Shown here one piece after another: positions 6-51,735 of a stretch of DNA of 64,000 bases (position 1 is its first letter; each line of letters opens with the position of its first letter). A program made the position numbers and the translations under genes. Source of the DNA: Candidatus Amesbacteria bacterium GW2011_GWC2_45_19 (lineage in GTDB: Bacteria; Patescibacteriota; Microgenomatia; CAZETR01; Amesbacteraceae); contig LCKS01000001.1 in NCBI GenBank assembly GCA_001001555.1, positions 82,066 to 146,065 on the forward strand, in the 5' to 3' direction. Under the pieces are notes generated by a model. It was not told the origin of the DNA, ran no database searches, and saw nothing but the letters and a program-made list of their open reading frames with translations.

Positions 6-455
6 ATGGTTTCCACCTTTAAGGTGGCAATTATTTTGGGGATTAAAGACAAGCAAAAGATTATTAAATTTGGCACGGTAGGTTTCGCAGGCTATGTGGT
101 CAACGCCACCGCTCTTTATCTCTTCACCAAATTAAATTGGCCCGGCTGGGCCGCCTGGGGTTTGTCCACCGAGTTGGCTATTCTCAATAACTTTACCTGG
201 AACAATATCTGGACTTTCAAAGACCAGCAAATAAACGGTTTGACTATGATTCTGTCTAAATTTTTGCAATTTAACATCACCTCGGCCGGAGGCCTGCTGA
301 TCCAGGTGGTAGTGGGCGTCGCGACAGACTATCTGACCGGCTCGCAATACCGCCAAATTGTTTTGCCTCTGACCATCGCCTTTTTAGTCATGCCCTACAA
401 CTATCTGATGTACACCCTGGTTATCTGGAGAAAAAAGGCGTCCAGTCGGAAATAG
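6..455 (+). CDS. GtrA-family small membrane protein (polysaccharide synthesis/translocation accessory)
   Basis: 149 aa, 4 predicted TM segments, N-terminal K-F-G-x-VG-x-x-G motif typical of the GtrA family; overlaps convergently with the next gene. Confidence 0.55.
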   Translation: MVSTFKVAIILGIKDKQKIIKFGTVGFAGYVVNATALYLFTKLNWPGWAAWGLSTELAILNNFTWNNIWTFKDQQINGLTMILSKFLQFNITSAGGLLIQVVVGVATDYLTGSQYRQIVLPLTIAFLVMPYNYLMYTLVIWRKKASSRK

Positions 456-1467
456 CCGCCGTATTGTGGGCCAGGAAATTTAAACTGTAGAAATACATGG
501 GAATAATTAAGAGCAGCAATGCCCATCTGACCTCTTTTTTCTCCAACACATCAGTTAAACCCAATATAACTACGGGCACCATAGGCAACGAATATCTGGC
601 TATATCCCGGTGCGATACAAATAAAATCACCGCGTAAAATATCGCTCCCCACCACCCCCAGACTGCTGATTTTCTGAACGCCCTGATCACCCCGACCGCT
701 CCGATCAAGTACATCCACAACACGTCTTCCAGCCACCAATTGCCCACCCAGGGCTGATTGCTGTCAAAAACTTTGAACGGCAATGCTTGTAAATGAATAT
801 TGTCCCCGGAATTGAAATATGCCCAGAAATCCCCGGTGCGTAAATAATAAAAACCAAATACGGCCACCAATGCAGCCGGAATCAAAAGCGTGGGCCAAAT
901 TTTTTTATCAAATTTAGACGCCAATACAAAAGCCGGGAACAGCAAAATTCCCGGGCTTTTGGTCAATGTGGCCAGGGCTCCGGCAATGGCCGCCAGCCAA
1001 TACGATTTCTTTCGGAAAGCATATAGGGCAATTACTACAAACAATATAAATAACGTTTCCGGGCTACCGATAGACCGCACCACCCACATTCTCGGCCAGG
1101 CAAACAACCACACCAGACCAGCTATCAGAGGATTTCCCCATTTAAATTCCTCAAAAATTTTGTAAATAGCCAGCGCTGTTACTGCCGAAACTACTAGATT
1201 TATCATCACGGCAGACAGCGGGCTGCCTCCAAAAAGCCAAATCAGGGCGGGGTATAGAGGAAAATGCGCCGGATAATACTCCAGTGGCAGCGGGAAAGAG
1301 AAATTATTACCGATAAACGCTTTGTCATACCAGCTTTTGGCAATCACCACATAATATAGTCCATCGAAGTTCTCATATACTTTCTGCATTCCCACCGGCA
1401 CCCATAGGGCCAATGTCGAAAATACGGAAACTACGGCCAGGATCAGCATATTTCGGCTGATTTTCAT
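421..1467 (-). CDS. Polytopic membrane protein, PIG-V-like (GT76-like) mannosyltransferase family
   Basis: 348 aa multi-TM protein with an FDG-x-YY...AFIG...FPLYPAL motif resembling PIG-V mannosyltransferases; paralog of 33090..34202. Confidence 0.45.
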   Translation of the reverse strand: MKISRNMLILAVVSVFSTLALWVPVGMQKVYENFDGLYYVVIAKSWYDKAFIGNNFSFPLPLEYYPAHFPLYPALIWLFGGSPLSAVMINLVVSAVTALAIYKIFEEFKWGNPLIAGLVWLFAWPRMWVVRSIGSPETLFILFVVIALYAFRKKSYWLAAIAGALATLTKSPGILLFPAFVLASKFDKKIWPTLLIPAALVAVFGFYYLRTGDFWAYFNSGDNIHLQALPFKVFDSNQPWVGNWWLEDVLWMYLIGAVGVIRAFRKSAVWGWWGAIFYAVILFVSHRDIARYSLPMVPVVILGLTDVLEKKEVRWALLLLIIPMYFYSLNFLAHNTAAISDWTPFFSR

Positions 1468-1484
1468 GCTACAATTGTAGCATG
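1465..1484. promoter_or_regulatory. Perfect 20-bp palindrome CATGCTACAATTGTAGCATG whose arms contain both divergent start codons; symmetric TACAAT -10 boxes; candidate bidirectional leaderless promoter/operator
   Basis: Read directly: cat(1465-1467)=start of minus gene, ATG(1482-1484)=start of plus gene, TACAAT on both strands 6-7 nt from each start; only 14 nt intergenic. Confidence 0.5.
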
Positions 1485-3638
1485 TCGAAAGGCGTCTCGG
1501 TAGTTATTCCCGCTTACAATGAACAGGACAATGTTGCCAAGTGCCTGACTTCTGTTTCTTCTGTCATAAAAAAACTTAAACTGGACGCAGAAGTAATCGT
1601 GGTCGATGATGGATCAACTGACCAAACTGGGGAAATTGCCAGGAAGTTTATTAAAAAAATCCCCAATTTAAAAATTGTCACCAATCACCCCAACCGCGGC
1701 TATGGTGGCTCTCTTAAGGCTGGGTTTGCCAAAGCCACTAAAGAATTAATTGCTTTTTTTCCCGCCGATAACCAATTCGATTTTTCCCAAATTTCTCTCT
1801 TACTGGAAAAAATGAAAGAAACCAGCGCTGATATTGTCAGTGGCATGAGAATCCACCGTCAAGATCCCCGGCATCGCCGGCTACTGGCCTGGATGTGGAA
1901 TACATTATTTGTTTCCCCTCTCTTTGGTTTCCTGGCTTTAGATATAGATTGCGGTTTTAAGCTTTTTCGCAGAAGTATATTAAAAAACGCTTATATTCCC
2001 GCGGAAAGGGGAGCTATGATCGATACTCAACTATTTGCTTCTGTGAAAGCTCATGGCCATGCTATCGCCGAAGTCCCCCTGGCTCACTACCCACGCACTT
2101 CGGGAGTTTCCACGGGTGCCAGCCCCAAAGTCATTATTCAATCTCTCATTGATTTGCTTAAATATTGGTGGCAGCTAAAGCAAGAGTTGCTCACTGAAAG
2201 AGGCAAAAATGTTTTCCGCTGGGAAGCCCTGGCTATTGTGGCCATTTTGGCGGCAGCCGCCTTTGTCCGTCTCTACAAAATTGACCAATATATGACTTTT
2301 TTGGGCGACGAAGGCCGGGATGTGTCGGTCGTCCGGGATATGTTAATAGGGCGCAAATTCACCCTGATTGGTCCCGGTACTTCCATTGGCAATATGTACT
2401 TAGGTCCTCTGTATTACTACATGATGCTGTTACCTCTGGCTTTGTTTAATTTTTCTCCCGTCGGGCCTGCTGTCCAAATCGCTTTGTTGGGGATGGCCAC
2501 CGTAGCTCTCTTGTGGTGGGTTGGCCGGCAATGGTTCGGCCGGGTTCCGGCTCTCCTAATTTCTATTCTCTATTCTCTATCTCCTGTCATAATCACCTAC
2601 TCCCGTTCTTCTTGGAATCCCAATATCATGCCTTTTTTTGCGCTTCTTTCCATATATGGTATTTGGAAAGTCTGGCGTCTGGGTTACTGGCGCTGGCTGG
2701 TTGTCACGGCCATCGCTTTCGCCTTCGTCCTCAACTCTCACTATTTAGGTTTATTATTGTTTCCCGTCCTTGGCCTATTTCGGTTCCTATCCAAAAAAAC
2801 TCCGAAAGCTAAATACTATTCTCTAATTTCTATTTTCTCATTTCTAATTTTAATGTCCCCACTTCTGTGGTTTGACCTGCGCCACAATTGGATAAATGTC
2901 AGGGCCGTCACGGCTTTTTTTACCGACCGCCAAACTACGGTTAATCTCAAAGCCTACAAAGCCCTGCCCAATCTTTGGCCTCTTTGGGTGGACATAAACA
3001 CGTCCCTCCTGGCTGCCAAAAATAAGCCGCTCGGGGCCGCCACGGCAATTTTATTGATCGGAGGACTAGTTTATTTAATCAAATCACGCCCCTCAAAAGA
3101 TTTTTGGTTTACTGCCACCTGGATGAGTGTCGGTCTAATCGGTCTGGGCTTATACAAGCAGCATATTTACGACCACTATTATGGTTTTCTTTTTCCAGCC
3201 CCCTTTTTACTCCTGGGCTTTATATTGGAAAAAATTAAAAAGTGGGCTTGGTTAGTTTTTGGGGCGCTGCTTCTGGCAAATATTTCAAATTTCCCCTTGC
3301 GTTTTTCACCCAATAATCAACTTGCTCATACCCAAGAAATTGCCGGATTTATCAAAGAGCAGGCCTCCGGCCAGCCTTTTAATCTTGCTTTAATTGCCAA
3401 AAGAAATTACGACAAGGGCTACGTCTACTTTTTAGATATCCAGAAGGCCCCTTACTACACTATCCACCAAAAACTATCAGATCAATTATTTGTAATTTGC
3501 GAAGACCCGGTTTGTGAACCTATCAACAATCCTTTGTGGGAGATTGCTGCATTCGGCTGGGCTAAAATTGACCGGCAGTGGGAATTTCCCTGGGGCACCA
3601 AACTCTTCCGTCTCGTCCACAATTCTACCGGAAAATGA
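1482..3638 (+). CDS. Fusion protein: N-terminal GT2 (DPM1/ArnC-like polyprenyl-phosphate sugar synthase) + C-terminal GT-C (PMT_2/ArnT-like) membrane glycosyltransferase domain
   Basis: N-term VVIPAYNE...VVDDGSTD...DXD GT2 hallmarks. From about aa 240 there are 10+ TM segments with LGDEGRD...GP...LGPLYYY, matching the start of the next stand-alone GT-C gene. Confidence 0.7.
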   Translation: MSKGVSVVIPAYNEQDNVAKCLTSVSSVIKKLKLDAEVIVVDDGSTDQTGEIARKFIKKIPNLKIVTNHPNRGYGGSLKAGFAKATKELIAFFPADNQFDFSQISLLLEKMKETSADIVSGMRIHRQDPRHRRLLAWMWNTLFVSPLFGFLALDIDCGFKLFRRSILKNAYIPAERGAMIDTQLFASVKAHGHAIAEVPLAHYPRTSGVSTGASPKVIIQSLIDLLKYWWQLKQELLTERGKNVFRWEALAIVAILAAAAFVRLYKIDQYMTFLGDEGRDVSVVRDMLIGRKFTLIGPGTSIGNMYLGPLYYYMMLLPLALFNFSPVGPAVQIALLGMATVALLWWVGRQWFGRVPALLISILYSLSPVIITYSRSSWNPNIMPFFALLSIYGIWKVWRLGYWRWLVVTAIAFAFVLNSHYLGLLLFPVLGLFRFLSKKTPKAKYYSLISIFSFLILMSPLLWFDLRHNWINVRAVTAFFTDRQTTVNLKAYKALPNLWPLWVDINTSLLAAKNKPLGAATAILLIGGLVYLIKSRPSKDFWFTATWMSVGLIGLGLYKQHIYDHYYGFLFPAPFLLLGFILEKIKKWAWLVFGALLLANISNFPLRFSPNNQLAHTQEIAGFIKEQASGQPFNLALIAKRNYDKGYVYFLDIQKAPYYTIHQKLSDQLFVICEDPVCEPINNPLWEIAAFGWAKIDRQWEFPWGTKLFRLVHNSTGK

Positions 3639-5002
3639 TTATTTTTCTTACCCTTTTATCCGCCTTTTTTTTAAGAATCTATAGAGTCTCTGATTTTTTA
3701 GGATTCTGGTACGATCAGGGCCGGGACGCATTAGTCATCTGGGATCTGCTTCATAAAGGCAAATTCTTCCTCATAGGCCCCACCACCGGCATTGAGGGCA
3801 TTTTCTTAGGTCCTTTTTATTACTATTTTATTGCTCCGGCTTACGCTTTAGGACGGGGCCATCCGGCTGTCGCCGCTGTATTCCTGGCTCTGGTCAATGC
3901 GGCCGCTATTTATTTAGTGTATTTGTTTGGCCGCAAGTATTTCAACCAAACTACCGGCCTTCTGGCAGCCATTCTTATTTCGTTCTCAACCAGGTTTATG
4001 CAAGACCAGCGTTGGCTGTCTAATCCCACTCCATTACCCTTGTTTGCAATTATTGCTCTTCACGCTCTTATGCAGAGCCGTTGGTGGCTTTTGGGACTAA
4101 GTGTTGGATTATCTCTGCAGCTTGAAGCCGCATCTGCAATATTTTTTCTCCCGGCGATTTTAGTTATTTTGCACCGCAAATTTAACAGGCATATGCTTAT
4201 AGGACTGCTGTTTTTTGGTCTTACCCTTATGCCCCAAATTATTTTTAATTTCCGTCACCAAAACATTTTGTTTGGTGCTTTCAAAACATTTTTAGTAAGC
4301 CAGCGCAGTTTTCAGCCGCAGCCGGTGGCTTTTCTGTCCACCCGGCTGAAGTTTTACTACGATACTTTTACTCCCAGATATTTTCGCACTCCCGGCACAG
4401 CCCTGTTTTTTTCCGTTTTTACTTTGGGAACGCTGGTTCTGGTCTGGCGTAAATTACCAAACACTCCGTTAAAAGTTCTTCTTATCTGGTGGCTGACCCC
4501 GATGGTTCTGCTTCTTTTCTACCACGGGAACAAAGGCTATGTTTGGGATTATTATTTTACAGGGGTTTTTCCCGCCCTCACCCTTCTTATCTCCGCCATC
4601 TGGGTAAAAACCGGTCGGAAATTTGCTGCCATTTTCTTAACTATCTTTCTCTACCAAAATCTTTCTGCCACTTCTGCATTTTTACGCCAGCCCCAGCCCG
4701 CTTACATTTCTCTTACTCCCCAAATTCAAGCCGTAGACTGGATTTATTCTAATGCAGCCGGTAAACCATTTAATACCGACGCTTATGTTCCCCCCGTTAT
4801 TCCTTACGCCTACGATTACCTGTTTCTCTGGCGCGGCCGGCCCGAAACCAGGCTAGTTGCCGATCTGTATACCATTCAGGAACCGGATCCCGGACATCCG
4901 GGTCTTCTTAATGCTTGGTTGGCCCGGCAGGATAGTTACTCTTCGATTAAACAAACTGTTATTTTCGGCCCGCTCACGGTTCAACACCGCACCCGGCGCT
5001 GA
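3635..5002 (+). CDS. GT-C family membrane glycosyltransferase (PMT_2/ArnT-like), subfamily with YDQGRD loop
   Basis: ATGA overlap with upstream stop; polytopic; WYDQGRDALVIWDL...GPTTGIEG...GPFYYY parallels the C-terminal domain of 1482..3638. Confidence 0.65.
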   Translation: MIIFLTLLSAFFLRIYRVSDFLGFWYDQGRDALVIWDLLHKGKFFLIGPTTGIEGIFLGPFYYYFIAPAYALGRGHPAVAAVFLALVNAAAIYLVYLFGRKYFNQTTGLLAAILISFSTRFMQDQRWLSNPTPLPLFAIIALHALMQSRWWLLGLSVGLSLQLEAASAIFFLPAILVILHRKFNRHMLIGLLFFGLTLMPQIIFNFRHQNILFGAFKTFLVSQRSFQPQPVAFLSTRLKFYYDTFTPRYFRTPGTALFFSVFTLGTLVLVWRKLPNTPLKVLLIWWLTPMVLLLFYHGNKGYVWDYYFTGVFPALTLLISAIWVKTGRKFAAIFLTIFLYQNLSATSAFLRQPQPAYISLTPQIQAVDWIYSNAAGKPFNTDAYVPPVIPYAYDYLFLWRGRPETRLVADLYTIQEPDPGHPGLLNAWLARQDSYSSIKQTVIFGPLTVQHRTRR

Positions 5003-5015
5003 TATACTGGAAAGC

Positions 5016-5753
5016 ATGGCCCAAACTTATCTTTCTATTGTTATTCCCGCCTGGAATGAATCTGCCAACATCAAAAGAGGAGCCTTAGATCAAGTTCTCA
5101 AATACCTCGCCCGGCAGAAATTTTCCTGGGAAGTAATTGTTGTTAACGATGGTTCTTCAGACGACACGCTTAGACTTTTGGAAAAATATTCCATTAAAGT
5201 CATCAACAATCCCCATCAGGGTAAAGCGGCCAGTGTCGCCTCCGGAGTTTCCCAAAGCGCGGGCCGGATAATTCTTTTCAGCGATATGGACCAAGCCACT
5301 CCCATCTCCGAGTTCGACAAATTTATCCCCAAGTTTAAAGAAGGTTTCGACATTGTCATTGGCTCCAGGTCGGGCCGCAAAGGAGCTCCAATTTACCGTC
5401 AAATCCTGGCTTACGGCATGGTAATTTTGCGTACCATTCTGCTCCGCTTGCCATACCGGGACACCCAGTGCGGTTTCAAGGCTTTTACCAAGCCAACCGC
5501 CCAAAAACTTTTTGTTATTTTTAACAAAGTTCATCCCGTCAGACCGACAACGGGGGGTGTGACCAATCCGGGTTTTGACGTAGAACTACTGTATCTGAGC
5601 CGCAAGCTGGGATTTCGCACGGCAGAAGTTACAGTAAATTGGGAGCATCAGCATGGCGAGAGAGTCCGGTTTATAAAAGACGCCATCGCTGGCACTTGGG
5701 AACTGCTTCTTGTCCGCTGGCGGTCTCTTACCAATACCTATGGCCTCCGTTAA
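5016..5753 (+). CDS. GT2 polyprenyl-phosphate sugar synthase (DPM1/GtrB-like)
   Basis: LSIVIPAWNE...VIVVNDGSSDDT...FSDMDQA (DXD)...QCGFKAF; start moved to first ATG after upstream stop. Confidence 0.75.
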   Translation: MAQTYLSIVIPAWNESANIKRGALDQVLKYLARQKFSWEVIVVNDGSSDDTLRLLEKYSIKVINNPHQGKAASVASGVSQSAGRIILFSDMDQATPISEFDKFIPKFKEGFDIVIGSRSGRKGAPIYRQILAYGMVILRTILLRLPYRDTQCGFKAFTKPTAQKLFVIFNKVHPVRPTTGGVTNPGFDVELLYLSRKLGFRTAEVTVNWEHQHGERVRFIKDAIAGTWELLLVRWRSLTNTYGLR

Positions 5754-6516
5754 ACCTCTGCTTTCGGTCATAATTCCCGCCTACAACGAAGAAAAAAGGC
5801 TGGGTTCTCATTTGGAACTGGTATTGAAATTTTTTCGTTCTCGCTACCCCAACTTTGAGTTGATTATTGTCGACGACGGAAGTAACGATGCTACCGCCCG
5901 GACAATATCTGCCGCAATCCCCAAAGAACCTCGCGCTCATCTCATTACATACCAACCCAACCGGGGCAAAGGTTATGCCGTAAGAAAAGGAGTTCTGGCT
6001 TCGCGCGGCGACCCGGTTCTTTTTATGGATGCCGATTTGTCTACCCCCCTGTCCCAGGTTCCTAAAATTTTGCAGGCCCTTTGGGGGGCTGATATTGTTA
6101 TCGGTTCCCGGGGTCAGGCCAAATCCGATATCCGTCAGCGCCCTCCACTTTTCCGCAGATTAGCTTCGTTTATATTTGACCAGATTAAATATGCTTTAGT
6201 CGGCTTGCGCCGCTTCAAGGATACTCAATGCGGATTTAAAGTTTTCCGCGGATCTATCGCTCGCCAATTGTTTGCCCAAAGCCAAGTTAACCGTTTTATG
6301 TTTGACGTAGAGATTTTATATCTGGCTGAACAAGCTAGAATGATTATTCGCGAAATACCGGTCACCTGGGCCGACGCTCCCGATAGCCACGTGCGTTTTT
6401 GGGAAGGAGTGGTCAGCATGTTCCGTGACCTCTGGCGCATCCGCCGCATACACCAGGGACACTCCTTTAAGGTTAGTCCTTTTAAGGCTAAAGATCGATC
6501 ACGGAGTTCTGAATAA
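5740..6516 (+). CDS. GT2 polyprenyl-phosphate sugar synthase (DPM1/GtrB-like); C-terminal ~20 codons read through REP-like repeat copy A
   Basis: LSVIIPAYNEE...IIVDDGSNDAT...MDADLS...QCGFKVF; last residues ...HQGHSFKVSPFKAKD are encoded by the REP sequence. Confidence 0.7.
   Translation: MASVKPLLSVIIPAYNEEKRLGSHLELVLKFFRSRYPNFELIIVDDGSNDATARTISAAIPKEPRAHLITYQPNRGKGYAVRKGVLASRGDPVLFMDADLSTPLSQVPKILQALWGADIVIGSRGQAKSDIRQRPPLFRRLASFIFDQIKYALVGLRRFKDTQCGFKVFRGSIARQLFAQSQVNRFMFDVEILYLAEQARMIIREIPVTWADAPDSHVRFWEGVVSMFRDLWRIRRIHQGHSFKVSPFKAKDRSRSSE
6456..6483 (+). repeat. REP-like repeat copy A (GGGACACTCCTTTAAGGTTAGTCCTTTT)
   Basis: One of three near-identical direct copies flanking the RAYT gene. 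Confidence 0.7.
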
Positions 6517-7180
6517 CGCTAATAGAGGCCTCTTCTAATCTTTGATCTTCCACAAAAGACTCATATGAGTTTGTACCAGCCGCAGCAAAGTATCCCAAGA
6601 TGTCTTGTGGCTTTACCCACTCCTGGTTGATCCTCCCCAGGTAATTGGGATAAGATGACGGTTGGGGACACTCCTTTAAGGTTAGTCCTTTTTGAATAGG
6701 GTTGCGATGGATGTATCTAGTGAGATGAAGGAGTTGTTCTTCAGTTTCGACCAAAACAGCCTTGTAAGTATCCTGGAAAAGACCGCCAACCCGTTTATCA
6801 TGACGGTGATTAAAGTATTGAGCATAACGGGTAGCAAGAGATCTCATGAATTTCTCAATTCCTCGCTCATTCTTTTGTTTTATCAATAAATGAAAGTGGT
6901 TTGGCATCAGACAGTAAGCCCGTAAATCAATTTCTCCAGCGAAATTATTCATCCTCAACAACTTAGCTGCTTCCGATTTTTCCTTTGGTGAAGAATCGGG
7001 ATCCGCAATTATCTGAGCTAAACTACTTACGTCTTTAGGGGACAAATACTCTTTTAAGTAAGACAAAAAGACAGCTTCGTCTTGATGGTCAACAAATATC
7101 GTTCTTTTTTCCACCCCCCGGTTATAGATATGATAATAACCGTTAGGAAGATAATCTTTGACTTTGTTTCTGGCTGGCAT
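6488..7180 (-). CDS. REP-associated tyrosine transposase (RAYT; IS200/IS605-like HUH Y1 transposase)
   Basis: N-term YHIYNRG, HUH motif NHFHLLI, catalytic Tyr context RYIHRNP. ORF reads through REP copy B, so the true C-terminus may be shorter (~160 aa). Confidence 0.65.
   Translation of the reverse strand: MPARNKVKDYLPNGYYHIYNRGVEKRTIFVDHQDEAVFLSYLKEYLSPKDVSSLAQIIADPDSSPKEKSEAAKLLRMNNFAGEIDLRAYCLMPNHFHLLIKQKNERGIEKFMRSLATRYAQYFNHRHDKRVGGLFQDTYKAVLVETEEQLLHLTRYIHRNPIQKGLTLKECPQPSSYPNYLGRINQEWVKPQDILGYFAAAGTNSYESFVEDQRLEEASISVIQNSVIDL
6665..6693 (+). repeat. REP-like repeat copy B
   Basis: GGGACACTCCTTTAAGGTTAGTCCTTTTT; lies inside the 3' part of the RAYT ORF. Confidence 0.7.
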
Positions 7181-7210: not shown

Positions 7211-7274
7211 GGCTTGCGGGGCAATACCGAGGATGTTAGACTAAATTAGACTAAATTAATCTGGTTGAGTTTTT

Positions 7275-11239: not shown

Positions 11240-11278
11240 CTATAATGTAAAATGACTTCATGGCGGAAGAAGTCACGC
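11240..11278 (+). repeat. Right copy of 39-nt direct repeat (native promoter/start of wzx)
   Basis: cTATAATGTAAAATGACTTCATGGCGGAAGAAGTCACGC. Confidence 0.7.
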
Positions 11279-12720: not shown

Positions 12721-14249
12721 TAATTATAGGCACTATTATCTGGTCGTTGACCATGGTCAAGAGCGGCTGGATATATCCGTATGGCATGGGTTTTTGGGGG
12801 GCCAACGGCCACGACGGCATTTGGCACCTGTCTCTTGTCGAAAGCCTGTCCCGCGGCAGTTTGGCTATGCCCATGTTTGCCGGTGAAGTCATCAAAAATT
12901 ATCACCTGGGCTTTGATCTGATCTTGGCTGGTCTGCATCGCCTAACGGGAATTCCGGTAGTGAACTTATATTTTCAGATTGCTCCACCCGTTCTGGCTCT
13001 CTTAATCGGATTTTTGACTTTTAAACTTACCCGCAATTTATGGTCGGTTTTCTTCGTTTATTTCGGCGGCAACTGGGCCTGGATTTTAGGAAAAGGGGAA
13101 TCCACTTTCTGGTCCCAGGCCTCTATTTCTACCCTTATCAACCCTCCCTACGCACTTTCGCTAGTTGTCATTTTGTTAGGCCTAATATTACTCGATAAAA
13201 AACGTTATTTACTGGCCGGATTAATTTTTGGCCTGCTGGTGCAGATCAAAATTTACGCCGCTATTCTGATCATCGCCGGGCTGGGGGTAGCCGCTTTCAA
13301 AAACCGCCACCTTTTCAAAACTTTAGTGGCCACGCTTTTGGTCTCTCTGCCGTTATATCTGATTACTAACCGCCAATCCGCGTCTCTTATCGTCTTCCAG
13401 CCTGGGTGGTTTTTGGAAACCATGATGGCTCTGTCTGACCGGCTGAATTGGCCGCGGTTTTATGAAGCTATGACCAATTATCGCGCCGCGGGCAACTGGC
13501 TCAAGGCCGCACTAGCTTACGCTGCGGCCCTGGCTATTTTTGTAATTGGCAACCTGGGCACGCGCCTAATATTTTTGGCCCGTAAATTAAATCTGTTTTA
13601 CATAACCATTATTGTCCTAGGTGTTATTTTGCCCATGTTGTTTCTGCAATCCGGTACTCCCTGGAACACCATTCAATTTTTTTATTACCCCCTCTTCTTC
13701 GCCAGTCTTCTCGCTGGCGAATATTTGAAAATTGTAAATTTCAAATTTCAAATTTTGATAGTTCTTTTGACATTGCCCACCACCCTAATTACTCTGCGTG
13801 ACGTTTATCTGCCTTCGCGGCCTCCGGCTATGATTTCCCGTTCGGAGCTGGAAGCCCTGCAATTTCTGCGCGCCCAACCGCCGGGGATTGTTTTGACGCC
13901 CGTCGTTAATCCCAACCCTTATTCTCCACCCCCCAGGCCTTTATATCTCTACGAATCAACGGCCTATGTCTCTGCCCTCTCCGGCCAGCCGGTGTATATG
14001 GAAGACGAAGTCAATCTAAACATCACCACTTATGCCTGGCCGGTCCGCCGCCAAGTTATTCTTGATTTATTCGCCACCGGCGATGCTTCTGTTGCCGCCA
14101 AATTTCTCTCTGATAATAATATCCGTTATCTCTACCTGCCCCAAGTGGCCTTCGTTCGCCCCCGCCTTAGTGAAACGGCTTTAGGCATGACCAAGCTATT
14201 TGAAAATTCCCAGGTAGCTATTTGGGCCAGGTCAATTCTGCTAAAATAG
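12684..14249 (+). CDS. Polytopic membrane protein of unknown function (possible glycan polymerase/GT-C-like)
   Basis: 521 aa, many TM; no recognised catalytic motif; context next to wzx. Confidence 0.35.
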   Translation: MEKNNHRPPWSLIIIGTIIWSLTMVKSGWIYPYGMGFWGANGHDGIWHLSLVESLSRGSLAMPMFAGEVIKNYHLGFDLILAGLHRLTGIPVVNLYFQIAPPVLALLIGFLTFKLTRNLWSVFFVYFGGNWAWILGKGESTFWSQASISTLINPPYALSLVVILLGLILLDKKRYLLAGLIFGLLVQIKIYAAILIIAGLGVAAFKNRHLFKTLVATLLVSLPLYLITNRQSASLIVFQPGWFLETMMALSDRLNWPRFYEAMTNYRAAGNWLKAALAYAAALAIFVIGNLGTRLIFLARKLNLFYITIIVLGVILPMLFLQSGTPWNTIQFFYYPLFFASLLAGEYLKIVNFKFQILIVLLTLPTTLITLRDVYLPSRPPAMISRSELEALQFLRAQPPGIVLTPVVNPNPYSPPPRPLYLYESTAYVSALSGQPVYMEDEVNLNITTYAWPVRRQVILDLFATGDASVAAKFLSDNNIRYLYLPQVAFVRPRLSETALGMTKLFENSQVAIWARSILLK

Positions 14250-14253
14250 AGGC

Positions 14254-15093
14254 ATGCTCTCGGTGGTAATTACGGCCTGGAACGAAGAGAAGGATATCGC
14301 CCGGGCTCTTTCCTCGGTTAAGAAGCTAGCGGATGAAATAGTAGTTGTCGTCGATGAGGCAACCACGGACCGCACCGCCCAAGTCGCCAAAAAACTGGGA
14401 GCCAAAGTTTTTTCTCATCCCCACGCCGGCATCGTTGAGCCCATGCGCAATTTCTCCATTTCCAAGGCTACGGGTGACTGGATTCTTCTTCTGGACGCAG
14501 ATGAGGAAATTTCGGCCAGTCTGGCCAAAAAGATCAAGGAATTAATCAAGGATCCTTCCGCCGATTACTATCGTCTGCCCCGCAAAAATATCATTTTTGA
14601 CAAATGGATTACTTCAGACCATTGGTGGCCGGATTATGTGTACCGCCTTTTCCGCCGCGGCGCCGTTACTTGGGAAGATACTGTCCATAGTATTCCTGTT
14701 ACGTATGGCCAGGGTCGGGATCTACCCGCCCAGGAAGAATTAAGTTTAGTGCATCACAATTATTCCACTGTGAGCGAGTACTTGGAACAGATTGACCGCT
14801 ATACCAAAGTCTCCTTGCCCGCAACTTTTGCGCCTTCTGACCTGGTGATTAAACCCATTGGAGAGTTTTTGAGTCAATACTTTGCCCGCCGGGGATATAC
14901 CCAGGGATTGCACGGGTTAGCCTTAGCCGGCTTGCAAATGTTTTCGGAATTCGTGCGCTATCTTAAGGCGTGGCAAAGCCGGGATTTTGTCCAAACAGAG
15001 TTCGGCTCACAGGACCTGACAGCCCAGTTAAAAAACAAAGCCCGTGAGTATCGCTGGTGGAAATCTCCTCCCTGGCTTCGGCCCTGGCTATGA
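14254..15093 (+). CDS. GT2 glycosyltransferase (short soluble type)
   Basis: LSVVITAWNEE...EIVVVVDEATTDRT...DADEEI; paralog of 15954..16712 and 30675..31490. Confidence 0.7.
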   Translation: MLSVVITAWNEEKDIARALSSVKKLADEIVVVVDEATTDRTAQVAKKLGAKVFSHPHAGIVEPMRNFSISKATGDWILLLDADEEISASLAKKIKELIKDPSADYYRLPRKNIIFDKWITSDHWWPDYVYRLFRRGAVTWEDTVHSIPVTYGQGRDLPAQEELSLVHHNYSTVSEYLEQIDRYTKVSLPATFAPSDLVIKPIGEFLSQYFARRGYTQGLHGLALAGLQMFSEFVRYLKAWQSRDFVQTEFGSQDLTAQLKNKAREYRWWKSPPWLRPWL

Positions 15094-20529: not shown

Positions 20530-21393
20530 CTAAACTTCTTCTACTAATTCCGGAAGGACCTGGATATAGGCTCTAACTAAATCCCACTTTCCCCACACGG
20601 CCCAGGCGGGAATTCTAATAGCACAGCCAAAAAGTAAAACCAACTTTAGCAGAAACCGTTCAGGAGCCGAATTGTATTTTTTAAACCAATACAGATAACC
20701 ACGCATTTCTCCCAAAAAAGAATTGGCGTAGGTTTTAACGCTTTGGCGAGCCAGATGCACACATTGGGCGCCCGGAAAATAATAGGTATCAAAGCCGGAT
20801 TTTTGGGTGCGGTACATCCATTCGGTTTCCTCTCCATACATATAAAAATTCTCGTCAACCCCCCCGGTTTTTTCGTAGACTCCACGCTTGAGCATCACAA
20901 AAGCCCCCATCACCCAGTCGACTTTTTGTGTGGTAGTAAATCTGGATAGGTCGCGGACGTGGACCGAATCGACGAATTTACGGATAACTGGGAAGTTGTC
21001 AACAAAGATTTGAAACTGAAGAATCCTGCGCAGAGTGGGGAAATATCCCCAGGAAGGTTGTATCGACAGGTCTTCGTTGAGTAGTTGGCAACCTAAAACA
21101 TCGTAATCTAGGGCATAACACTTGGCTAGAGTATCCGGATAGACAAATGCGTCACTGTTAAGAAGCAAAATTTTATCGCCTTTAGCTACTCTCATACCTT
21201 TGTTGTTATTGGCTCCAAATCCCAGGCGGGTGGGATTATTAATTATTTTCACTTTCGGAAAAACCAGTTTATCTTCCGGGGTGTTATTAATTAAAATAGT
21301 CTCAAATTCTATTTCCCGGGATCTATACAAATGCTGCAAACATTTGAACGTGACATCCGGGGTTCCGTGATTTATGATAATTACAGATAGCAT
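20530..21393 (-). CDS. GT2 glycosyltransferase
   Basis: MLSVIIINHGTPDVT...ILINNTPED...NSDAFV; start codon overlaps the divergent GT-C start (CATG). Confidence 0.7.
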   Translation of the reverse strand: MLSVIIINHGTPDVTFKCLQHLYRSREIEFETILINNTPEDKLVFPKVKIINNPTRLGFGANNNKGMRVAKGDKILLLNSDAFVYPDTLAKCYALDYDVLGCQLLNEDLSIQPSWGYFPTLRRILQFQIFVDNFPVIRKFVDSVHVRDLSRFTTTQKVDWVMGAFVMLKRGVYEKTGGVDENFYMYGEETEWMYRTQKSGFDTYYFPGAQCVHLARQSVKTYANSFLGEMRGYLYWFKKYNSAPERFLLKLVLLFGCAIRIPAWAVWGKWDLVRAYIQVLPELVEEV

Positions 21394-22987
21394 GAGCTGG
21401 ATTCTTAGCCTTATTTTAGCACTTAGCCTTATTTTACGCGTTGGGTTGTTGAATCAGGTTCCTCCGGAACTATTTGGTGATGAAGTCGACGTAGGTTACC
21501 AAGCCAGATCGCTCTTGCAAACCGGTCGGGATTTGTACGGCCAGGTATTGCCCACCTATATTCATTCTCTGGCCGAGTGGCGGGCCCCGCTTCTGATGTA
21601 CGCCACCGTTCCCACCATAGCTGTCTTTGACAACTCCGTCCGGGGCGTCCGCCTGCCGGAAGTCATTTTTGGTACTCTTGGCCCCCTGATTCTATTTCTT
21701 TTGGTTTACCAAATTTCGAAATCTTGGAAGTTTGGAGTTTTGGCGTTTTTGGTTATGGCCACCATGCCCTGGCATATTTATTATTCCCGGGCCGCCTTCG
21801 AAGTGGTTCTCATGCTCAACCTGGTCATGTTGGGCACTCTCCTTTTTCTTAAAAAACGTTTTGCACTTTGCACTTTGCACTTTGCACTAGCTATGTACAC
21901 TTACAGTACCGCCGTCCTATTTGTCCCGCTTTGGCTGGTTGTTCTGCACTTTCTTACTAAAACAAAACCCAAAGTTGTTTCCCTGTTATTATTTACGATT
22001 ATTGTTGCTCCATTGATATATCACATCGTCGCCGGCCCGGCCCGCGGCCGGTTTGGAGGTTTAAGTATTTTTAACCAGCAGGAACTGGTGAGAAATATTA
22101 ATGATTTGCGCCAGGAAGACAATAATCCCATCGCGCCCCTTTGGCACAACAAACCGGAAACTTACGCTTCGGCCATTATGGCCAATTACTTAAGAGCCTT
22201 TTCTACCGACTTTTTGTTTATCCGGGGCGATCCCATCTACCGCCACAGTATCCAGATAGTGGGTCAACTGTTAGCTATCTCTTCCCCGTTTGTGCTTCTG
22301 GGTTTGTGGTCCTTAGGCTCAAGGCGGCAATGGCTCTGGTTGTCCTGGCTGATTTTAGCTCCAATTCCGGCTGCCTTAACTGCCGACGGGGGATATCATG
22401 CTACCCGCCTCTTTCTCATGATCCCTCCTCTGGCCGTGGCCACCGGCACCGGTTTACTTTTAGTTCTGCAAAAATTACCCAGGATTTTAAATATCCTGTT
22501 AGTATTACTGTTTACTGTTTACATCGCGTGGCTGGGTCATTATTACGTGGCCCATTACGCCAAATCTTCCTGGCGCTGGTGGCACGTCGGGTTTGAGCAA
22601 GCGATGGTTCAATTAAACAAACTATCTCCTCAATACTCGCGGGTATTTATTAATAATACTTACGAACCGTCTTTAATTAGATTCTTGTTTTGGACCAATT
22701 ATTCTCCTGCCAAGTTTCACCGCCAATTCACTGTCGACCAGCCGCAGGATAACATCGTTCCCAATTACAACGGCTTTTCTCTGGACGGCAAATATTTCTT
22801 TGGCAATTTTAATAAATCAAACTGGACAGAATTTTTACTCCCCAACAGTCTGTATCTTATTTCCCAGCGCGACAATGTCGCCGGGGATTGGGACTGGCGC
22901 CGCACTCCGCCAGATAATATCCGCGTTCTCTTTACCAGCACCAATGCCTATGACCAGCCCGTCCTATATTTGATAACCAAGATATAA
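21392..22987 (+). CDS. GT-C family membrane glycosyltransferase (PMT_2/ArnT-like), paralog 1 of tandem array
   Basis: LFGDEVDVGYQARSLLQTGRD first-loop DE motif, 12+ TM; contains (TTTGCAC)x4. Confidence 0.65.
   Translation: MSWILSLILALSLILRVGLLNQVPPELFGDEVDVGYQARSLLQTGRDLYGQVLPTYIHSLAEWRAPLLMYATVPTIAVFDNSVRGVRLPEVIFGTLGPLILFLLVYQISKSWKFGVLAFLVMATMPWHIYYSRAAFEVVLMLNLVMLGTLLFLKKRFALCTLHFALAMYTYSTAVLFVPLWLVVLHFLTKTKPKVVSLLLFTIIVAPLIYHIVAGPARGRFGGLSIFNQQELVRNINDLRQEDNNPIAPLWHNKPETYASAIMANYLRAFSTDFLFIRGDPIYRHSIQIVGQLLAISSPFVLLGLWSLGSRRQWLWLSWLILAPIPAALTADGGYHATRLFLMIPPLAVATGTGLLLVLQKLPRILNILLVLLFTVYIAWLGHYYVAHYAKSSWRWWHVGFEQAMVQLNKLSPQYSRVFINNTYEPSLIRFLFWTNYSPAKFHRQFTVDQPQDNIVPNYNGFSLDGKYFFGNFNKSNWTEFLLPNSLYLISQRDNVAGDWDWRRTPPDNIRVLFTSTNAYDQPVLYLITKI
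21860..21887 (+). repeat. Heptanucleotide tandem repeat (TTTGCAC)x4 inside GT-C coding sequence
   Basis: Read directly; encodes FALCTLHFAL. Confidence 0.8.
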
Positions 22988-22988
22988 C

Positions 22989-24587
22989 ATGCGCCGTTTA
23001 TTAATTCTGGCCCTGATTATCGGATCGCTCACGCGTCTCTTGTGGATCTCCCGCTATCCGGCCGGATTCACTGCCGACGAAGCAGCTTTTGGCTACAATG
23101 CCTACTCGCTCTTGCTTACCGGCCGTGACGAATGGGGGACTCCCTGGTGGCAATTGTTTTTTACCAACCTCCGTTCCTTTGGGGATTATAAACTTCCCCT
23201 TTACGCTTTCCTGGCCGTTCCCTCCGTTAAAATATTTGGTCTGACTGAATTTGCCGTCCGCCTGCCCAACGCCATTTTTGGCATTCTGGCTATCACAAGC
23301 ATTTACTTACTGGCAAAAAAGTTATACCTCACCTCTCACCCCTCTCCTTTAAAAGGAGAGGGGAACGCAAGGGGTGAGGTACTGGGAGTAACTTCTGCAT
23401 TACTGCTAGCCATCAGCCCCTGGCATATTCAACTGTCCCGGGGTGCCTTTGAAGCCAATCTGGCCACCTTTCTCTTGCCGATGGGGATCTATCTGCTTCT
23501 GGAAAGCCATCCTCTCCTTTCCACCCTCTTTTTTATCGCCTCGGCCTACTCCTATCATTCCGCCAGACTAATATTGCCGTTCATCCTCGTTTTTCTTTTT
23601 ATATACTTCCGGGATAAATTCAAACCCCTATTAATTATTCCTCTTCTGATCTCGCTTTGGGGGCTGACTTCCCCCCGGGTGGCTGACGTAAGCATTTTCA
23701 GCCCTACCGATAACTGGTTAGGAGTAGCCACCCGCCGTTTTGAAGCCCGGGCCCTGGGTCTTCCGGACCAAATAGCCCGCGTTTTTTCCAACAAACTGGT
23801 TTATTCACTTTCTACATTCACCCAAAATTATATTTCCTATTTCTCTCCCAACTTTCTGTTCACCTCCGGGGCCGGCGAATCCTTTTACGGCATGATGCCG
23901 GGCAGGGGAGTGCTTTATTTGATTGAACTGCCAATTTTGATCATGGCCCTAATTTATTTCATCCGTCGGCCATCAAAACTATATTTACTATTACTTTTAC
24001 TATTACTAATCTCCCCTATTCCCGCCGCTTTGGCCAAAGGTCCCGGAGCCGCCGCCAACCGCGCGGCAATCATGCTTCCCTGGCTGGTAATTTTTCTCTC
24101 TACCATTATTGTCCGCCTTCCGCGCAAATGGCTGGCTCTTTTAGCCGGCGCTTACGTTATTAGCTTCGTCTTTTTCGTCGAGGATTATCTATATCATTCC
24201 TCTTATATTACCGCCCCTTCCATGTCTTACGGATGGCGGGAATTGGTGCCGCGCCTCAAGCCTTTTTCCGACCGCTTTTCCGATGTGCGCTTCAGCCGCT
24301 CTCTTTCCGAACCGCATATTTTTGTGGCTTTTTATTCCCGTTTCGATCCCCGGGAGTATCAAAAAGCCGCGGCTTCCTGGCCCCGCCATATCAAGTTTTT
24401 GGACCAGTTTGATGGTTATTATTTGGGTAAATACCGTTTCGGCGACATTCATCCCCAAGATCCGGTAATCACTCCTACACTTTTCATTGGTAAACCGGAG
24501 GATTTTCCCGCCGGTTTTCCCCAATATTTCCAGATTGATTATCCTTCTTCCCGGCCGGCTATCATAGTCGCCCAAAAACTTCCATGA
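22989..24587 (+). CDS. GT-C family membrane glycosyltransferase, paralog 2; carries in-frame palindromic mini-element insertion
   Basis: FTADEAAFGYNAYSLLLTGRDEWG; extra 17 aa (SHPSPLKGEGNARGEVL) relative to paralogs, encoded by nested inverted repeats. Confidence 0.65.
   Translation: MRRLLILALIIGSLTRLLWISRYPAGFTADEAAFGYNAYSLLLTGRDEWGTPWWQLFFTNLRSFGDYKLPLYAFLAVPSVKIFGLTEFAVRLPNAIFGILAITSIYLLAKKLYLTSHPSPLKGEGNARGEVLGVTSALLLAISPWHIQLSRGAFEANLATFLLPMGIYLLLESHPLLSTLFFIASAYSYHSARLILPFILVFLFIYFRDKFKPLLIIPLLISLWGLTSPRVADVSIFSPTDNWLGVATRRFEARALGLPDQIARVFSNKLVYSLSTFTQNYISYFSPNFLFTSGAGESFYGMMPGRGVLYLIELPILIMALIYFIRRPSKLYLLLLLLLLISPIPAALAKGPGAAANRAAIMLPWLVIFLSTIIVRLPRKWLALLAGAYVISFVFFVEDYLYHSSYITAPSMSYGWRELVPRLKPFSDRFSDVRFSRSLSEPHIFVAFYSRFDPREYQKAAASWPRHIKFLDQFDGYYLGKYRFGDIHPQDPVITPTLFIGKPEDFPAGFPQYFQIDYPSSRPAIIVAQKLP
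23326..23380 (+). repeat. Palindromic mini-element (MITE/REPIN-like) inside GT-C coding sequence
   Basis: Inner perfect palindrome CCCCTCTCCTTT-A-AAAGGAGAGGGG (23339..23363); outer arms CTCACCCCT / AGGGGTGAG; preceded by 7-mer periodic CCTCACC TCTCACC CCTCTCC. Confidence 0.65.
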
Positions 24588-26089
24588 AAAAATATATTTT
24601 TATCCTCTTGGTTCTTTTAATTCCCGCATTTTCTCTCATGCTCCGCCCGGGCATTTTTACCATGCATGACTTTCACCCTTTCCGGCAGTATGAATTTTCC
24701 CAATGCGTCGCCGCTAAAACTTTCCCCTGCCGCTGGGCCCCTGATGCCGGCATGGGTTACGGTGAACCGGTATTTAATTTTTACGGCCAATTTCCCTACT
24801 GGGTCGGGCAAATTTTTCACTCTCTGGGGTTACAAATCATTGATTCCGTCAAAGCCAATTTTATTCTGACCATCATAGTTTCGGCTGTCGGCATGTATTT
24901 GCTGGGCAAAAAATATTGGGGAAACTTGGGCGGGATGATCGCGGCCCTGTTTTACATTTATGCGCCTTACCGGGCGGTAGACGTCTGGGTCCGCGGCTCT
25001 CTCAACGAGGCTTACGCTCTGGCTCTATTTCCTTTTATATTTCTCTCGCTGGACAACTTTCTGGACGACCATCAGCCCCGGCACTTATGGTGGCTGGTTT
25101 TCTTTGCCTCCGCACTACTCATAACCCACAACTTATCCGCACTCATGATTGCTCCGTTTCTGGCCATTTGGGTTTTTAAGAAATTCCCCGTGCCCTTCTC
25201 CCGCCTGATTGCCGCGGCAGCCGCCGTTTTTCTCTTGAGTGCTTTTTATTTACTGCCGGTTATTTTTGAAAGCCGGTTAGTCACCCTGAATTTGACTACC
25301 AGCTCCTATTACAATTATCAGCTCCACTGGACTACTCTCAAACAACTCTTTATTTCCCGTTTCTGGGGTTACGGCGGCTCCACCTGGGGCCCCAATGATA
25401 CTATGAGTTTTTCTGTGGGCTACCTGCAATGGCTCGTCCCTCTATTTCTTCTTCTTCGCAAAAAGTCCCTCGCGTTTATCGCTTTTGGCTTCTTTGCCGT
25501 TTTTCTCACTCACGGCAAGTCGGAATTTATCTGGAAACTTTTTCCGCCCCTGGCTTATATCCAATTCCCTTGGCGTTTCCTGGCCGTCTCTACTTTCTTT
25601 TTGTCTCTTTCCTCCGGCGCCATCTCTCAAGTTTTCTCCAAAAAAATTCTAAGTCTCTTAATCATCTTAGTTATCTTAATTAACTTTTCTTTCTTCCGTC
25701 CGGATATTTGGCGCAGCATTGGAGATAAAGAACAATTCTCGGGAGCCTTGTGGGACGAACAGCGCTCTTCCGCTCTTCAGGATTTTTGGCCTAAGACGGC
25801 CAAACAACTTCCCACCGGTTTTGCCCCACGCCTCCCCCAGGTTTTACTTACTACTGACACTTATCAAAAAATCCAATACCCAATTGTTTATTTCCCCGGC
25901 TGGAAATCCCAAGTCGAGCTGTTTCCATCGGGCCCATTGGGCCTCATCACTGCCCGGGTTCCCCTGGGCACTCAAATTAACCTGAAATTTACCAACACCC
26001 CAATCAGAACCATCGGCAACATTACTAGTTTGGTCGCTTTGCTATGTCTCATCTTAAGTGGCTATTACTTATTACCGCGGCGGGTCTAA
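24584..26089 (+). CDS. Large polytopic membrane protein, family B (paralog of 8730..10388)
   Basis: FPCRWAPDAGMGYGEPVFNFY...YAPYRAVDVWVRGSLNE...TNTPIRTIGN. Confidence 0.45.
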   Translation: MKKYIFILLVLLIPAFSLMLRPGIFTMHDFHPFRQYEFSQCVAAKTFPCRWAPDAGMGYGEPVFNFYGQFPYWVGQIFHSLGLQIIDSVKANFILTIIVSAVGMYLLGKKYWGNLGGMIAALFYIYAPYRAVDVWVRGSLNEAYALALFPFIFLSLDNFLDDHQPRHLWWLVFFASALLITHNLSALMIAPFLAIWVFKKFPVPFSRLIAAAAAVFLLSAFYLLPVIFESRLVTLNLTTSSYYNYQLHWTTLKQLFISRFWGYGGSTWGPNDTMSFSVGYLQWLVPLFLLLRKKSLAFIAFGFFAVFLTHGKSEFIWKLFPPLAYIQFPWRFLAVSTFFLSLSSGAISQVFSKKILSLLIILVILINFSFFRPDIWRSIGDKEQFSGALWDEQRSSALQDFWPKTAKQLPTGFAPRLPQVLLTTDTYQKIQYPIVYFPGWKSQVELFPSGPLGLITARVPLGTQINLKFTNTPIRTIGNITSLVALLCLILSGYYLLPRRV

Positions 26090-30675: not shown

Positions 30676-31490
30676 TGAAGTATCACCCCTCCTCACTACG
30701 TTCGGTTTCCCCTCTTAAATTAAGAGGGGACAAAGGGGTGATATTGTCTGTTGTTCTTGCCACTCGCAATGAGGAGGCCAATCTAACTCGTTGTCTGGAG
30801 GCGGTAAAATCGATTGCCAATGAGATAATCATTGCGGACGAGCAATCAACCGACAAAACAGTGGGAATAGCCAAAAAATTCGGGGCAAAAGTCATTTCTG
30901 TTCCGCATCAGGAAAATTTCCATATCACCAAAAATATCGCCATAGACGCCGCCCGTGGAGACTGGATCCTCCAATTAGATGCCGACGAAGTCGTCTCCCC
31001 CGAACTGGCTTGCGAAATTGTCTCTACTATCAACCATGAATCATCAACCATGAACGGTTATTGGGTTAACCGCCGCAATTGGTTTCTCACCCGCTTCTTA
31101 TCTAAAGGCGGCCAATATCCGGATCCCACTCTCCGCCTGTACCGCCGGGGAAAAGGAAGACTTCCGGCCAAAGACGTGCACGAGCAAGCACAGATCCAGG
31201 GTCCAACCGGCCGCTTGCGGAACGATTTGTACCACTACCGGGATACCAGTTTCGCCAAGTACTTAGATGGTTTTAATCGCTATTCATCGTTTTTGGCGGC
31301 AAATATTAACCCCGAGGTCAATTTGCGGCAAACTCTCAACTACCTGGGCTGCAAACCAGTGGTAACGTTTTGTAAAATCTATTTTCGTCACCGGGGTTAC
31401 GTTGACGGTTACCCTGGTTTTGTCTTTGCCCTCTTTTCCGGCCTCACCCACGCCATCGCCTATATTAAATATTGGCAAAGGTTATTATGA
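30675..31490 (+). CDS. GT2 glycosyltransferase (short soluble type); true start possibly GTG at 30738
   Basis: VVLATRNEE...EIIIADEQSTDKT...LDADEVV. The first 21 codons (KYHPSSLRSVSPLKLRGDKG) are encoded by a palindromic mini-element and are probably not native coding sequence. Confidence 0.65.
   Translation: MKYHPSSLRSVSPLKLRGDKGVILSVVLATRNEEANLTRCLEAVKSIANEIIIADEQSTDKTVGIAKKFGAKVISVPHQENFHITKNIAIDAARGDWILQLDADEVVSPELACEIVSTINHESSTMNGYWVNRRNWFLTRFLSKGGQYPDPTLRLYRRGKGRLPAKDVHEQAQIQGPTGRLRNDLYHYRDTSFAKYLDGFNRYSSFLAANINPEVNLRQTLNYLGCKPVVTFCKIYFRHRGYVDGYPGFVFALFSGLTHAIAYIKYWQRLL
30681..30743 (+). repeat. Palindromic mini-element (same architecture as 23326..23380) at gene junction
   Basis: Outer perfect 10-bp arms TATCACCCCT / AGGGGTGATA; inner CCCCTCTTAA-A-TTAAGAGGGG (30709..30729). 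Confidence 0.65.
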
Positions 31491-32467: not shown

Positions 32468-32496
32468 TTGACAATCGATATTGTTTGTCATACACT
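32468..32496 (+). promoter_or_regulatory. brnT promoter with operator-like inverted repeat; -10 box 7 nt upstream of GTG start (leaderless)
   Basis: TTGACA(32468-32473)-17 nt-TACACT(32491-32496); inverted repeat TGACAA...TTGTCA overlaps the -35 and spacer. Confidence 0.45.
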
Positions 32497-32502
32497 ATAT
32501 AA

Positions 32503-36712: not shown

Positions 36713-36716
36713 GTCA

Positions 36717-41937: not shown

Positions 41938-41940
41938 TAT

Positions 41941-43790: not shown

Positions 43791-43805
43791 ACTTCTATAC
43801 AGCTC

Positions 43806-46030: not shown

Positions 46031-46036
46031 TATAAT
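46031..46036 (+). promoter_or_regulatory. TATAAT -10 box 7 nt upstream of GTG start (leaderless configuration)
   Basis: ctgTATAATcactataGTG. Confidence 0.4.
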
Positions 46037-46043
46037 CACTATA

Positions 46044-51729: not shown

Positions 51730-51735
51730 CTCTTC

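Follow-up and report, generated by a model that had tools for sequence, protein, structure and literature searches.

Predicted leaderless transcription from paired -10 elements between divergent genes of an Amesbacteria glycosylation island

Leaderless genes, bidirectional promoters and the Amesbacteria window

A Pribnow box lying 6-8 nucleotides (nt) from the start codon is a mark of leaderless genes (PMC6028130), and in Deinococcus deserti 47% of transcription start sites fall exactly on the start codon (PMC4007540). Bidirectional promoters, for their part, can share -10 elements, and at those of E. coli the two polymerase binding modes exclude each other (bioRxiv 10.1101/2020.01.31.928960; PMC12825309). 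Both kinds of promoter bear on a 64,000-nt stretch of the genome of Candidatus Amesbacteria bacterium GW2011_GWC2_45_19 (contig LCKS01000001.1, positions 82,066 to 146,065; hereafter the window), in which two palindromic sequences, site 1 at 1465-1484 and site 2 at 43756-43777, lie between divergent genes. These sites are probably compact bidirectional promoter regions built from -35-independent -10 elements, and the transcripts that leave them are predicted to be leaderless.

The closest parallel to the individual genes is found among the leaderless genes of Actinobacteria and Deinococcus-Thermus (GeneMarkS-2 group C; M. tuberculosis, D. deserti), which carry TAnnnT 6-8 nt before an ATG or GTG (PMC6028130, PMC4007540). 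The Amesbacteria genes share that spacing and, as in group C, they have no Shine-Dalgarno sequence, they use GTG as well as ATG, and it is the first genes of operons that are marked. They differ in belonging to the candidate phyla radiation (CPR, or Patescibacteria; here the Microgenomates), in having promoters that are mostly of the extended -10 type (TGn) with no -35 signal, and in their internal genes, where Shine-Dalgarno motifs are nearly absent, whereas the internal genes of group C use them. Full-text literature searches for leaderless transcription in Patescibacteria, CPR, Saccharibacteria or Microgenomates turned up no paper that describes it; the predicted mechanism is a known one, in a lineage for which no such description was found.

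The divergent arrangement of site 1 resembles the bidirectional promoters described by Warman, Forrest, Wade & Grainger, in which -10 hexamers on opposite strands overlap, the symmetry comes from the TAnnnT consensus itself, divergent initiation sites are 7-25 base pairs (bp) apart (15 bp is predicted for site 1), and the polymerase binding modes compete, as they presumably do here. The common E. coli classes have separations of 18 bp, followed by 10 and 23 bp, in contrast to the 15 bp predicted here with a 2-bp overlap at AT. The E. coli transcripts are also mostly leadered and many are non-coding RNAs, whereas both Amesbacteria products are predicted to be leaderless mRNAs; it is because of this predicted property that both start codons fit inside one 20-bp unit. 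A further difference from the promoters of Warman et al. is that each start codon supplies the T of its partner's TG. The M. tuberculosis lysG/lysE pair was rejected as a comparison, being a 108-bp region with a real operator.

The two sites and their orthologues

Site 1, CATGCTACAATTGTAGCATG, is a 20-bp perfect palindrome that holds two interleaved promoter modules, one on each strand and both predicted to be leaderless, together with both start codons. An initial annotation had placed the two divergent starts in the arms of this palindrome with TACAAT 6 nt before each, and the sequence agrees: ATG occupies 1482-1484 on the plus strand and 1467-1465 on the minus strand, and the hexamers are at 1470-1475 and 1479-1474, respectively. 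Either strand reads TGnTAnnnT-N6-ATG, the extended -10 form. The rightward gene, P, has its extended -10 element TGCTACAAT at 1467-1475 (TG at 1467-1468) and a predicted +1 at A1482, while the leftward gene, M, has the same TGCTACAAT at 1474-1482 of the minus strand (TG at 1482-1481) and a predicted +1 at 1467. The hexamers overlap by 2 bp at a self-complementary AT (A1474/T1475), 14 nt separate the start codons, and the T of each TG pairs with the A of the opposite gene's ATG (T1467 for the plus-strand module). A scan with a two-hexamer consensus found no canonical promoter for either gene.

Gene P (1482-3638, plus strand) encodes a 718-residue GT2 + PMT_2 fusion glycosyltransferase with an unambiguous start, MSKGVSVVIPAYNE, and gene M (421-1467, minus strand) encodes a 348-residue membrane protein with no Pfam hit. 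The two starts are the sole in-frame start codons available. Because orthologous M proteins align from residue 1, ATG 1467 is best regarded as the true M start, and the JGI call at 1449 as wrong, being too short.

Much of the symmetry of site 1 is built into this arrangement. Placing TGnTAnnnT-N6-ATG on both strands at the site 1 offset fixes 14 of the 20 positions (CATG.TA..AT..TA.CATG), and these are palindromic because the two modules are superimposed at that offset. Only three free pairs are left, namely 1469/1480, 1472/1477 and 1473/1476, and full symmetry would then be a matter of these three matching by happenstance.

The divergent M/P pair is kept in 63 loci, the window included, from Amesbacteria, Woesebacteria and Shapirobacteria (loci other than the window are cited by L numbers). 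Ten of these, again counting the window, have exactly CAT-N14-ATG, in seven sequence variants. All 14 promoter and start-codon positions are invariant in the N14 loci; the hexamers drift (TACAAT, TATTAT, TAAAAT, TATGAT), always as TAnnnT with spacer 6 on both strands. Over all 63 loci the spacing runs from N14 to about N100, usually with TAnnnT 6-9 nt from each start; in the orthologues other than the N14 loci, 15 to about 100 nt separate the start codons, and each start usually has its own -10 element at 6-10 nt. The module persists between genomes whose proteins are 57-88% identical. The initial annotation had named a lack of conservation in orthologous intergenic regions as one point on which its reading could fail, and since the -10/spacer/start module is conserved there, the reading is not refuted on that point.

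Site 2, CAATTATACA-GT-TGTATAATTG, was thought to do the same for a divergent GT2/GtrA pair. Modules are indeed present on both strands, but the palindrome is imperfect, with 10-nt perfect arms around a non-complementary 2-nt centre; it is a quasi-palindrome formed by two back-to-back -10 elements. On the minus strand the GT2 gene (42966-43751) has a module at 43749-43763, with TATAAT at 43763-43758, N6 and ATG 43751 as its predicted leaderless start, and on the plus strand the GtrA-family gene (43782-44189) has one at 43770-43784, with TATAAT at 43770-43775, N6 and GTG 43782 as its proposed leaderless start. Unlike those of site 1, the hexamers stand 6 bp apart and do not overlap. The predicted start sites are separated by 31 bp, which exceeds the 7-25 bp by which bidirectional promoters have been defined. 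An orthologue of site 2 from Hainich groundwater (L091, 80% protein identity) keeps TGTATAAT-N6-GTG on both strands, with its arms 16 nt apart as against 2 nt in the window. This comparison indicates that the modules of site 2 are conserved and that the palindrome as a unit is not. In the same metagenome scan L092 and L095 proved to carry other neighbours, and a tblastn search with the proteins of site 2 and of a further site, site 3, against 80 genome loci gave no matches.

The initial annotation had also proposed that one dimeric regulator gates both directions, so that the palindrome would be, or would also serve as, an operator for a dimeric transcription factor. Palindromic operators are common in divergent intergenic regions, LysG/lysE being an example (PMC5648196), the symmetry of site 1 is perfect in the window, L010 and L013, and all three free pairs match in the window, for which the chance is about 1/64. 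However, among the distinct N14 sequences the free pairs are non-complementary in 4/9, 3/9 and 5/9 cases, and they show no excess covariation, the observed score being reached by 188 of 500 shuffles. The two -10 elements are scattered across 15-100 nt in the further orthologues, the arms of site 2 shift from 2 to 16 nt apart, and no regulator gene adjoins. Joint control by such a regulator is thus improbable. The palindromes appear instead to be by-products of paired promoters, themselves predicted to be leaderless, and not operators.

Spacing, promoter marks and operon position

The spacing between TANNNT motifs and start codons, a check suggested in the initial annotation, was analyzed with a set of starts that is independent of gene callers, namely the first ATG, GTG or TTG of each open reading frame (ORF) of at least 120 codons. 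In the window, TAnnnT lies exactly 6 nt before 8 of 62 first starts, when a per-position background of 0.018 predicts about 1 (binomial P = 1.7e-5); other spacers give 0-4 first starts. In 80 related loci (18 Amesbacteria-like and 62 other Microgenomates), a spacer-6 TAnnnT precedes 37 of 172 first starts in the former group, 27 of them with TGn, and 69 of 489 in the latter, 41 with TGn. The matches fall in 25 of 183 protein clusters, and the peak at spacer 6 is one nucleotide sharp in both the window and the related loci. Counting TGNTANNNT-N6-RTG over the whole window yields only the chance level; bare motif abundance is uninformative, and position relative to starts was therefore used as evidence. 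A spacing histogram drawn from any in-frame start in long ORFs was rejected because it was swamped by internal codons, and first-start profiles were used instead.

The composition of these sites argues for transcription. When 114 unique spacer-6 sites were chosen by T-12, A-11 and T-7 alone, the unselected positions showed T-15 in 76%, G-14 in 69%, A-8 in 74%, a pyrimidine at -1 in 74% and A+1 in 82%, and no -35 signal was found among them. These are the hallmarks of an extended -10 promoter and a transcription start, and are unexpected for a ribosome-binding signal. In the enrichment of TG at -15/-14 and the lack of a -35 hexamer, the sites partly resemble the extended -10 promoters (TGnTATAAT) known from E. 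coli and Gram-positive bacteria. The canonical TG at -15/-14 is present at 1467, 1482, 14254 and 5016, and at 68 of the 106 spacer-6 sites of the related loci. In contrast to the canonical form, the starts at 43751, 43782, 46044 and 58811 read TGTATAAT, with TG abutting the hexamer one position closer.

The motif is also concentrated at the heads of operons. In a curated gene table, for which gene calls were taken from identical metagenome contigs since greedy ORF picking mis-resolved several genes, the motif occurs at spacer 6-7 before a candidate start in 14 of 27 operon heads versus 4 of 32 internal genes (Fisher P = 0.0013). The absence of Shine-Dalgarno sequences, another observation of the initial annotation, is borne out as well: 4-mers resembling that sequence lie upstream of 2 of 59 genes, compared with 8.6% of random 15-nt windows, and 5-mers of the GGAG type hardly occur at all before the 723 ORFs that were profiled. 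One of the two genes is an IS200/Y1-type transposase gene (6488-7180, minus strand), which has the sole textbook Shine-Dalgarno of the window (AAGGAG, 7 nt, ATG); this suggests recent foreign origin or a differing expression logic.

A signal acting at the RNA level would be slightly less probable even than an operator. Under this explanation the mRNAs have leaders and come from promoters inside neighbouring genes, and TAnnnT marks a non-Shine-Dalgarno ribosome-binding site or an unstructured region. Non-Shine-Dalgarno motifs do occur near starts in some lineages (group B, PMC6028130), and the near-absence of Shine-Dalgarno sequences means that internal genes need some other initiation signal. 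But a ribosome-binding signal should precede internal genes too, whereas this motif is specific to heads; TG at -15/-14, the pyrimidine at -1 and the purine at +1 are features of transcription, not translation; and the spacing peak is sharp to a single nucleotide.

It is very unlikely that the selected feature is an RNA or DNA hairpin, or a cruciform, that sequesters both start codons. Site 1 of the window does fold at -16.1 kcal/mol (z = -4.5), and L012 at -10.3 kcal/mol with G-U pairs, but L018 (-1.6 kcal/mol) and L021 (-4.1 kcal/mol), both of them N14 loci, fold no better than shuffles, and the hairpin would be absent from either mRNA if transcription begins at the ATG. No terminator-like site was found, and the fold is not conserved. 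Least likely of all are chance palindromes beside mis-called start codons: TAnnnT-N6-ATG does occur about 38 times per 64 kb by chance, and gene callers picked other starts for the M, GtrA, BrnT-like and 590-residue membrane-protein genes, but perfect palindromes with arms of at least 10 nt are expected only 0.12 times per 64 kb (dinucleotide shuffles), the module is conserved across genomes, and the M and P starts have no in-frame competitors.

Based on the spacer-6 peak, the promoter marks, the restriction to heads and the conservation of the module, all of them computational, the proposal of the initial annotation that these are leaderless bidirectional promoters and that many operon heads are leaderless is well founded. 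In the mechanism that we propose, a -10 element (TAnnnT, often TGnTAnnnT) is positioned 6, at times 7-8, nt before the start codon, so that the canonical +1, 7 nt past the hexamer, would be the A or G of that codon. The housekeeping holoenzyme would use these (extended) -10 elements without a -35 hexamer and initiate on the A or G, giving an mRNA whose 5' end is AUG or GUG, with neither leader nor Shine-Dalgarno sequence. By analogy with Actinobacteria (Mycobacterium) and Deinococcus, the ribosome would bind the 5'-terminal start codon directly. Because RNA polymerase would occupy the same DNA in either direction at site 1, its two modes of binding would exclude each other, and the orientation of binding would then set the transcript ratio. 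Most genes further down the operons overlap the gene next to them (ATGA-type junctions) and have no Shine-Dalgarno motif; they are probably translated by coupling.

Several observations weigh against this mechanism or narrow it. That the transcripts are leaderless is something we infer entirely from geometry and conservation. The degenerate TANNNT-N6-ATG is not enriched over the window as a whole (34 found, 37.8 expected), and the related loci all surround a single glycosylation cluster and are orthologous, so that the counts from them are phylogenetically non-independent and do not sample whole genomes. At site 2 the TG is at -14/-13 instead of the canonical -15/-14, the GtrA gene may start at either GTG 43782 or ATG 43806 (the JGI call), and conservation is represented by a single informative orthologue, L091, from the metagenome scan. 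Two divergent pairs of heads, 21374/21393 and 41937/41941, have no convincing -10 element at the right distance. Their candidate starts overlap (CATG, 21391-21394) or are 3 nt apart (CATtatATG, 41935-41943), and neither pair shows a recognisable -10 at spacer 6-8; other possible starts for these pairs are GTG 41928 with TATAAT-N7 and ATG 41965 with TGCTAAACT-N14. Finally, the heads at 53721, 56466 and 7275 have a good TGnTAnnnT at spacers of 21, 12 and 32, respectively, and therefore would have short leaders that lack a Shine-Dalgarno motif.

A wider generalization is put forward tentatively, with the balance tipped slightly against it: in Microgenomates, and perhaps in much of the CPR, leaderless mRNAs from -35-less extended -10 promoters may be the default for operon-first genes, with Shine-Dalgarno sequences almost unused and downstream genes expressed by translational coupling. 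The CPR ribosome is reduced, with a short bS1, no uL30 and often no bL9 (PMC9297842), and a survey of CPR ribosomes found loss of the anti-Shine-Dalgarno only in a Parcubacteria subgroup, a result that fits, without testing, the low Shine-Dalgarno use seen here. If the generalization is true, this would join Actinobacteria and Deinococcus-Thermus as the third large bacterial lineage so built, and its ribosomes would be the smallest of the three; the reduced CPR ribosome would be linked with leader-independent initiation, and a deep-branching lineage would be added to the debate on ancestral leaderless initiation. Should most Microgenomates genes prove leaderless, start codons in thousands of CPR genomes would be annotated better with a start model that takes promoters into account, like that of GeneMarkS-2 group C. 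For site 1 itself, the 20-bp CATGnTAnnATnnTAnCATG would be the minimal possible two-gene promoter, in which each start codon also contributes to the partner's promoter and polymerase orientation alone sets the output ratio. Such an interleaved unit would constitute a natural minimal bidirectional expression element.

Further starts and other features of the window

Beyond the four starts at sites 1 and 2 (1467, 1482, 43751 and 43782), all with spacer 6, a -10 element stands at that distance from the starts at 51736, 32503, 11260, 14254 and 36717, at spacer 7 from those at 46044 and 5016, and at spacer 8 from that at 58811. A spacer of 7 had been reported for 46044, 51736 and 32503; a recount upholds this figure for the first and gives 6 for the other two. 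All of these genes beyond sites 1 and 2 are on the plus strand. The epimerase/dehydratase gene has TATAAT, N7 and GTG 46044 (46031-46046), the GT2 gene TATAAT, N6 and ATG 51736 (51724-51738), the BrnT-like toxin gene TACACT, N6 and GTG 32503 (32491-32505; the JGI call is 32512), and the Polysacc_synt flippase gene TAAAAT, N6 and ATG 11260 (11248-11262). The start at 5016 has TGATATACT, N7 and ATG (5000-5018). At 58797-58813, TATAAT, N8 and ATG 58811 predict either a leaderless mRNA or one with a 1-nt leader. Divergent from the GT2 gene at 51736 is a gene for a 590-residue membrane protein on the minus strand (51713-51727), with TATATT, N6 and ATG 51715, the second of three tandem ATGs, among which the choice is ambiguous; the starts at 51715 and 51736 are 20 nt apart, and the spacer is 6 for both.

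Two of the plus-strand modules are joined to the end of the upstream gene. At 14239-14256, TGCTAAAAT is followed by N6 and ATG 14254, and the TAA that ends the upstream gene supplies the first three bases of the hexamer; at 36705-36719, with TAAAAT, N6 and ATG 36717, the upstream gene's TAA is inside the hexamer. These stretches (14242-14256 and 36705-36719) may be internal leaderless promoters just 4 nt past the preceding gene.

Similar modules are found in the same genome outside the window. About 7 kb past the window end, between a GT4 gene and a 740-residue ORF, L009 carries CATATGCTAAGATTCTAGCATG at 21255-21276, which comprises TGCTAAGAT-N6-ATG on one strand and TGCTAGAAT-N8-ATG on the other; its hexamers (21262-21271) overlap by AT like those of site 1. 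In L001, TGCTATTAT-N6-ATG occurs at 7838 and TATAAT-N7-ATG at 7738 (trmD).

The calls of the public pipeline seem to be wrong for at least five starts in the window, four of which are predicted to be leaderless. The pipeline and proposed starts are 1449 and 1467, 43806 and 43782, 51706 and 51715, 32512 and 32503, and 21330 and 21393, and in the last case the pipeline call removes the conserved GT2 N-terminus MLSVIIINHGTPD. That the pipeline picks later starts at genes predicted to be leaderless looks like a systematic error in start annotation. Predicted N-terminal peptides of the proposed starts are MSKGVSVVIPAYNEQ, MKISRNMLILAV and (M/V)VQTSIQLMR.

A motif, TG(C/T)TAGACTT, is retained upstream of the orthologous GT2 gene in about 29 Woesebacteria-like loci (L033-L086, at about 3960-3980), although protein identity is only about 40-50%, and the window has TGTTAGACT at 7234-7242, 32 nt before ATG 7275. 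The motif is conserved far beyond the needs of a -10 hexamer, whereas Amesbacteria hexamers drift freely, and it may be bound by a regulator or be specific to a particular sigma factor.

The window is almost wholly a cell-envelope glycosylation island, with GT2 and GT4 genes, many PMT_2/GT-C-like membrane proteins, sugar epimerases, a flippase and two toxin-antitoxin pairs; scans for tRNAs and Rfam families gave no hits. Apart from two small indels it is identical to contigs that have been assembled repeatedly from aquifer metagenomes (JGI 3300025012 and 3300025308, Rifle groundwater assemblies). The window is missing 41 bp at about 7487 and 33 bp at about 15752 that are found in all matching metagenome contigs, and these gaps split two genes (7275/7303 and 15057/15782). 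The indels were considered as palindromic elements and rejected as such, and because the missing DNA is ordinary coding sequence, the gaps probably arose as an artefact when this genome was assembled or binned.

Another five inverted repeats, perfect or nearly so and with arms of 10-25 nt, are located at 23339-23363, 27166-27193, 29452-29473, 30185-30236 and 30708-30730, where about 0.1 is expected per spacer class. All are inside tandem GT-C/PMT_2-like ORFs, and two of them have a common CCCCTC...GAGGGG core. Strings of the related form GGAGAGGGG..GGTGAGGT are also seen before trmD in L001 and between genes in L016 and L017; a search at the fixed spacing GGAGAGGGG-N8-GGTGAGGT gave no match. 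Judging from these sequences, the repeats and strings may constitute a small family of palindromic repeat elements. The region 21374-30675 consists of six consecutive paralogous genes for membrane proteins of 500-537 residues, some with PMT_2 or PTPS_related matches, which are joined by overlapping or 1-nt junctions in an unusually long tandem GT-C-like array.

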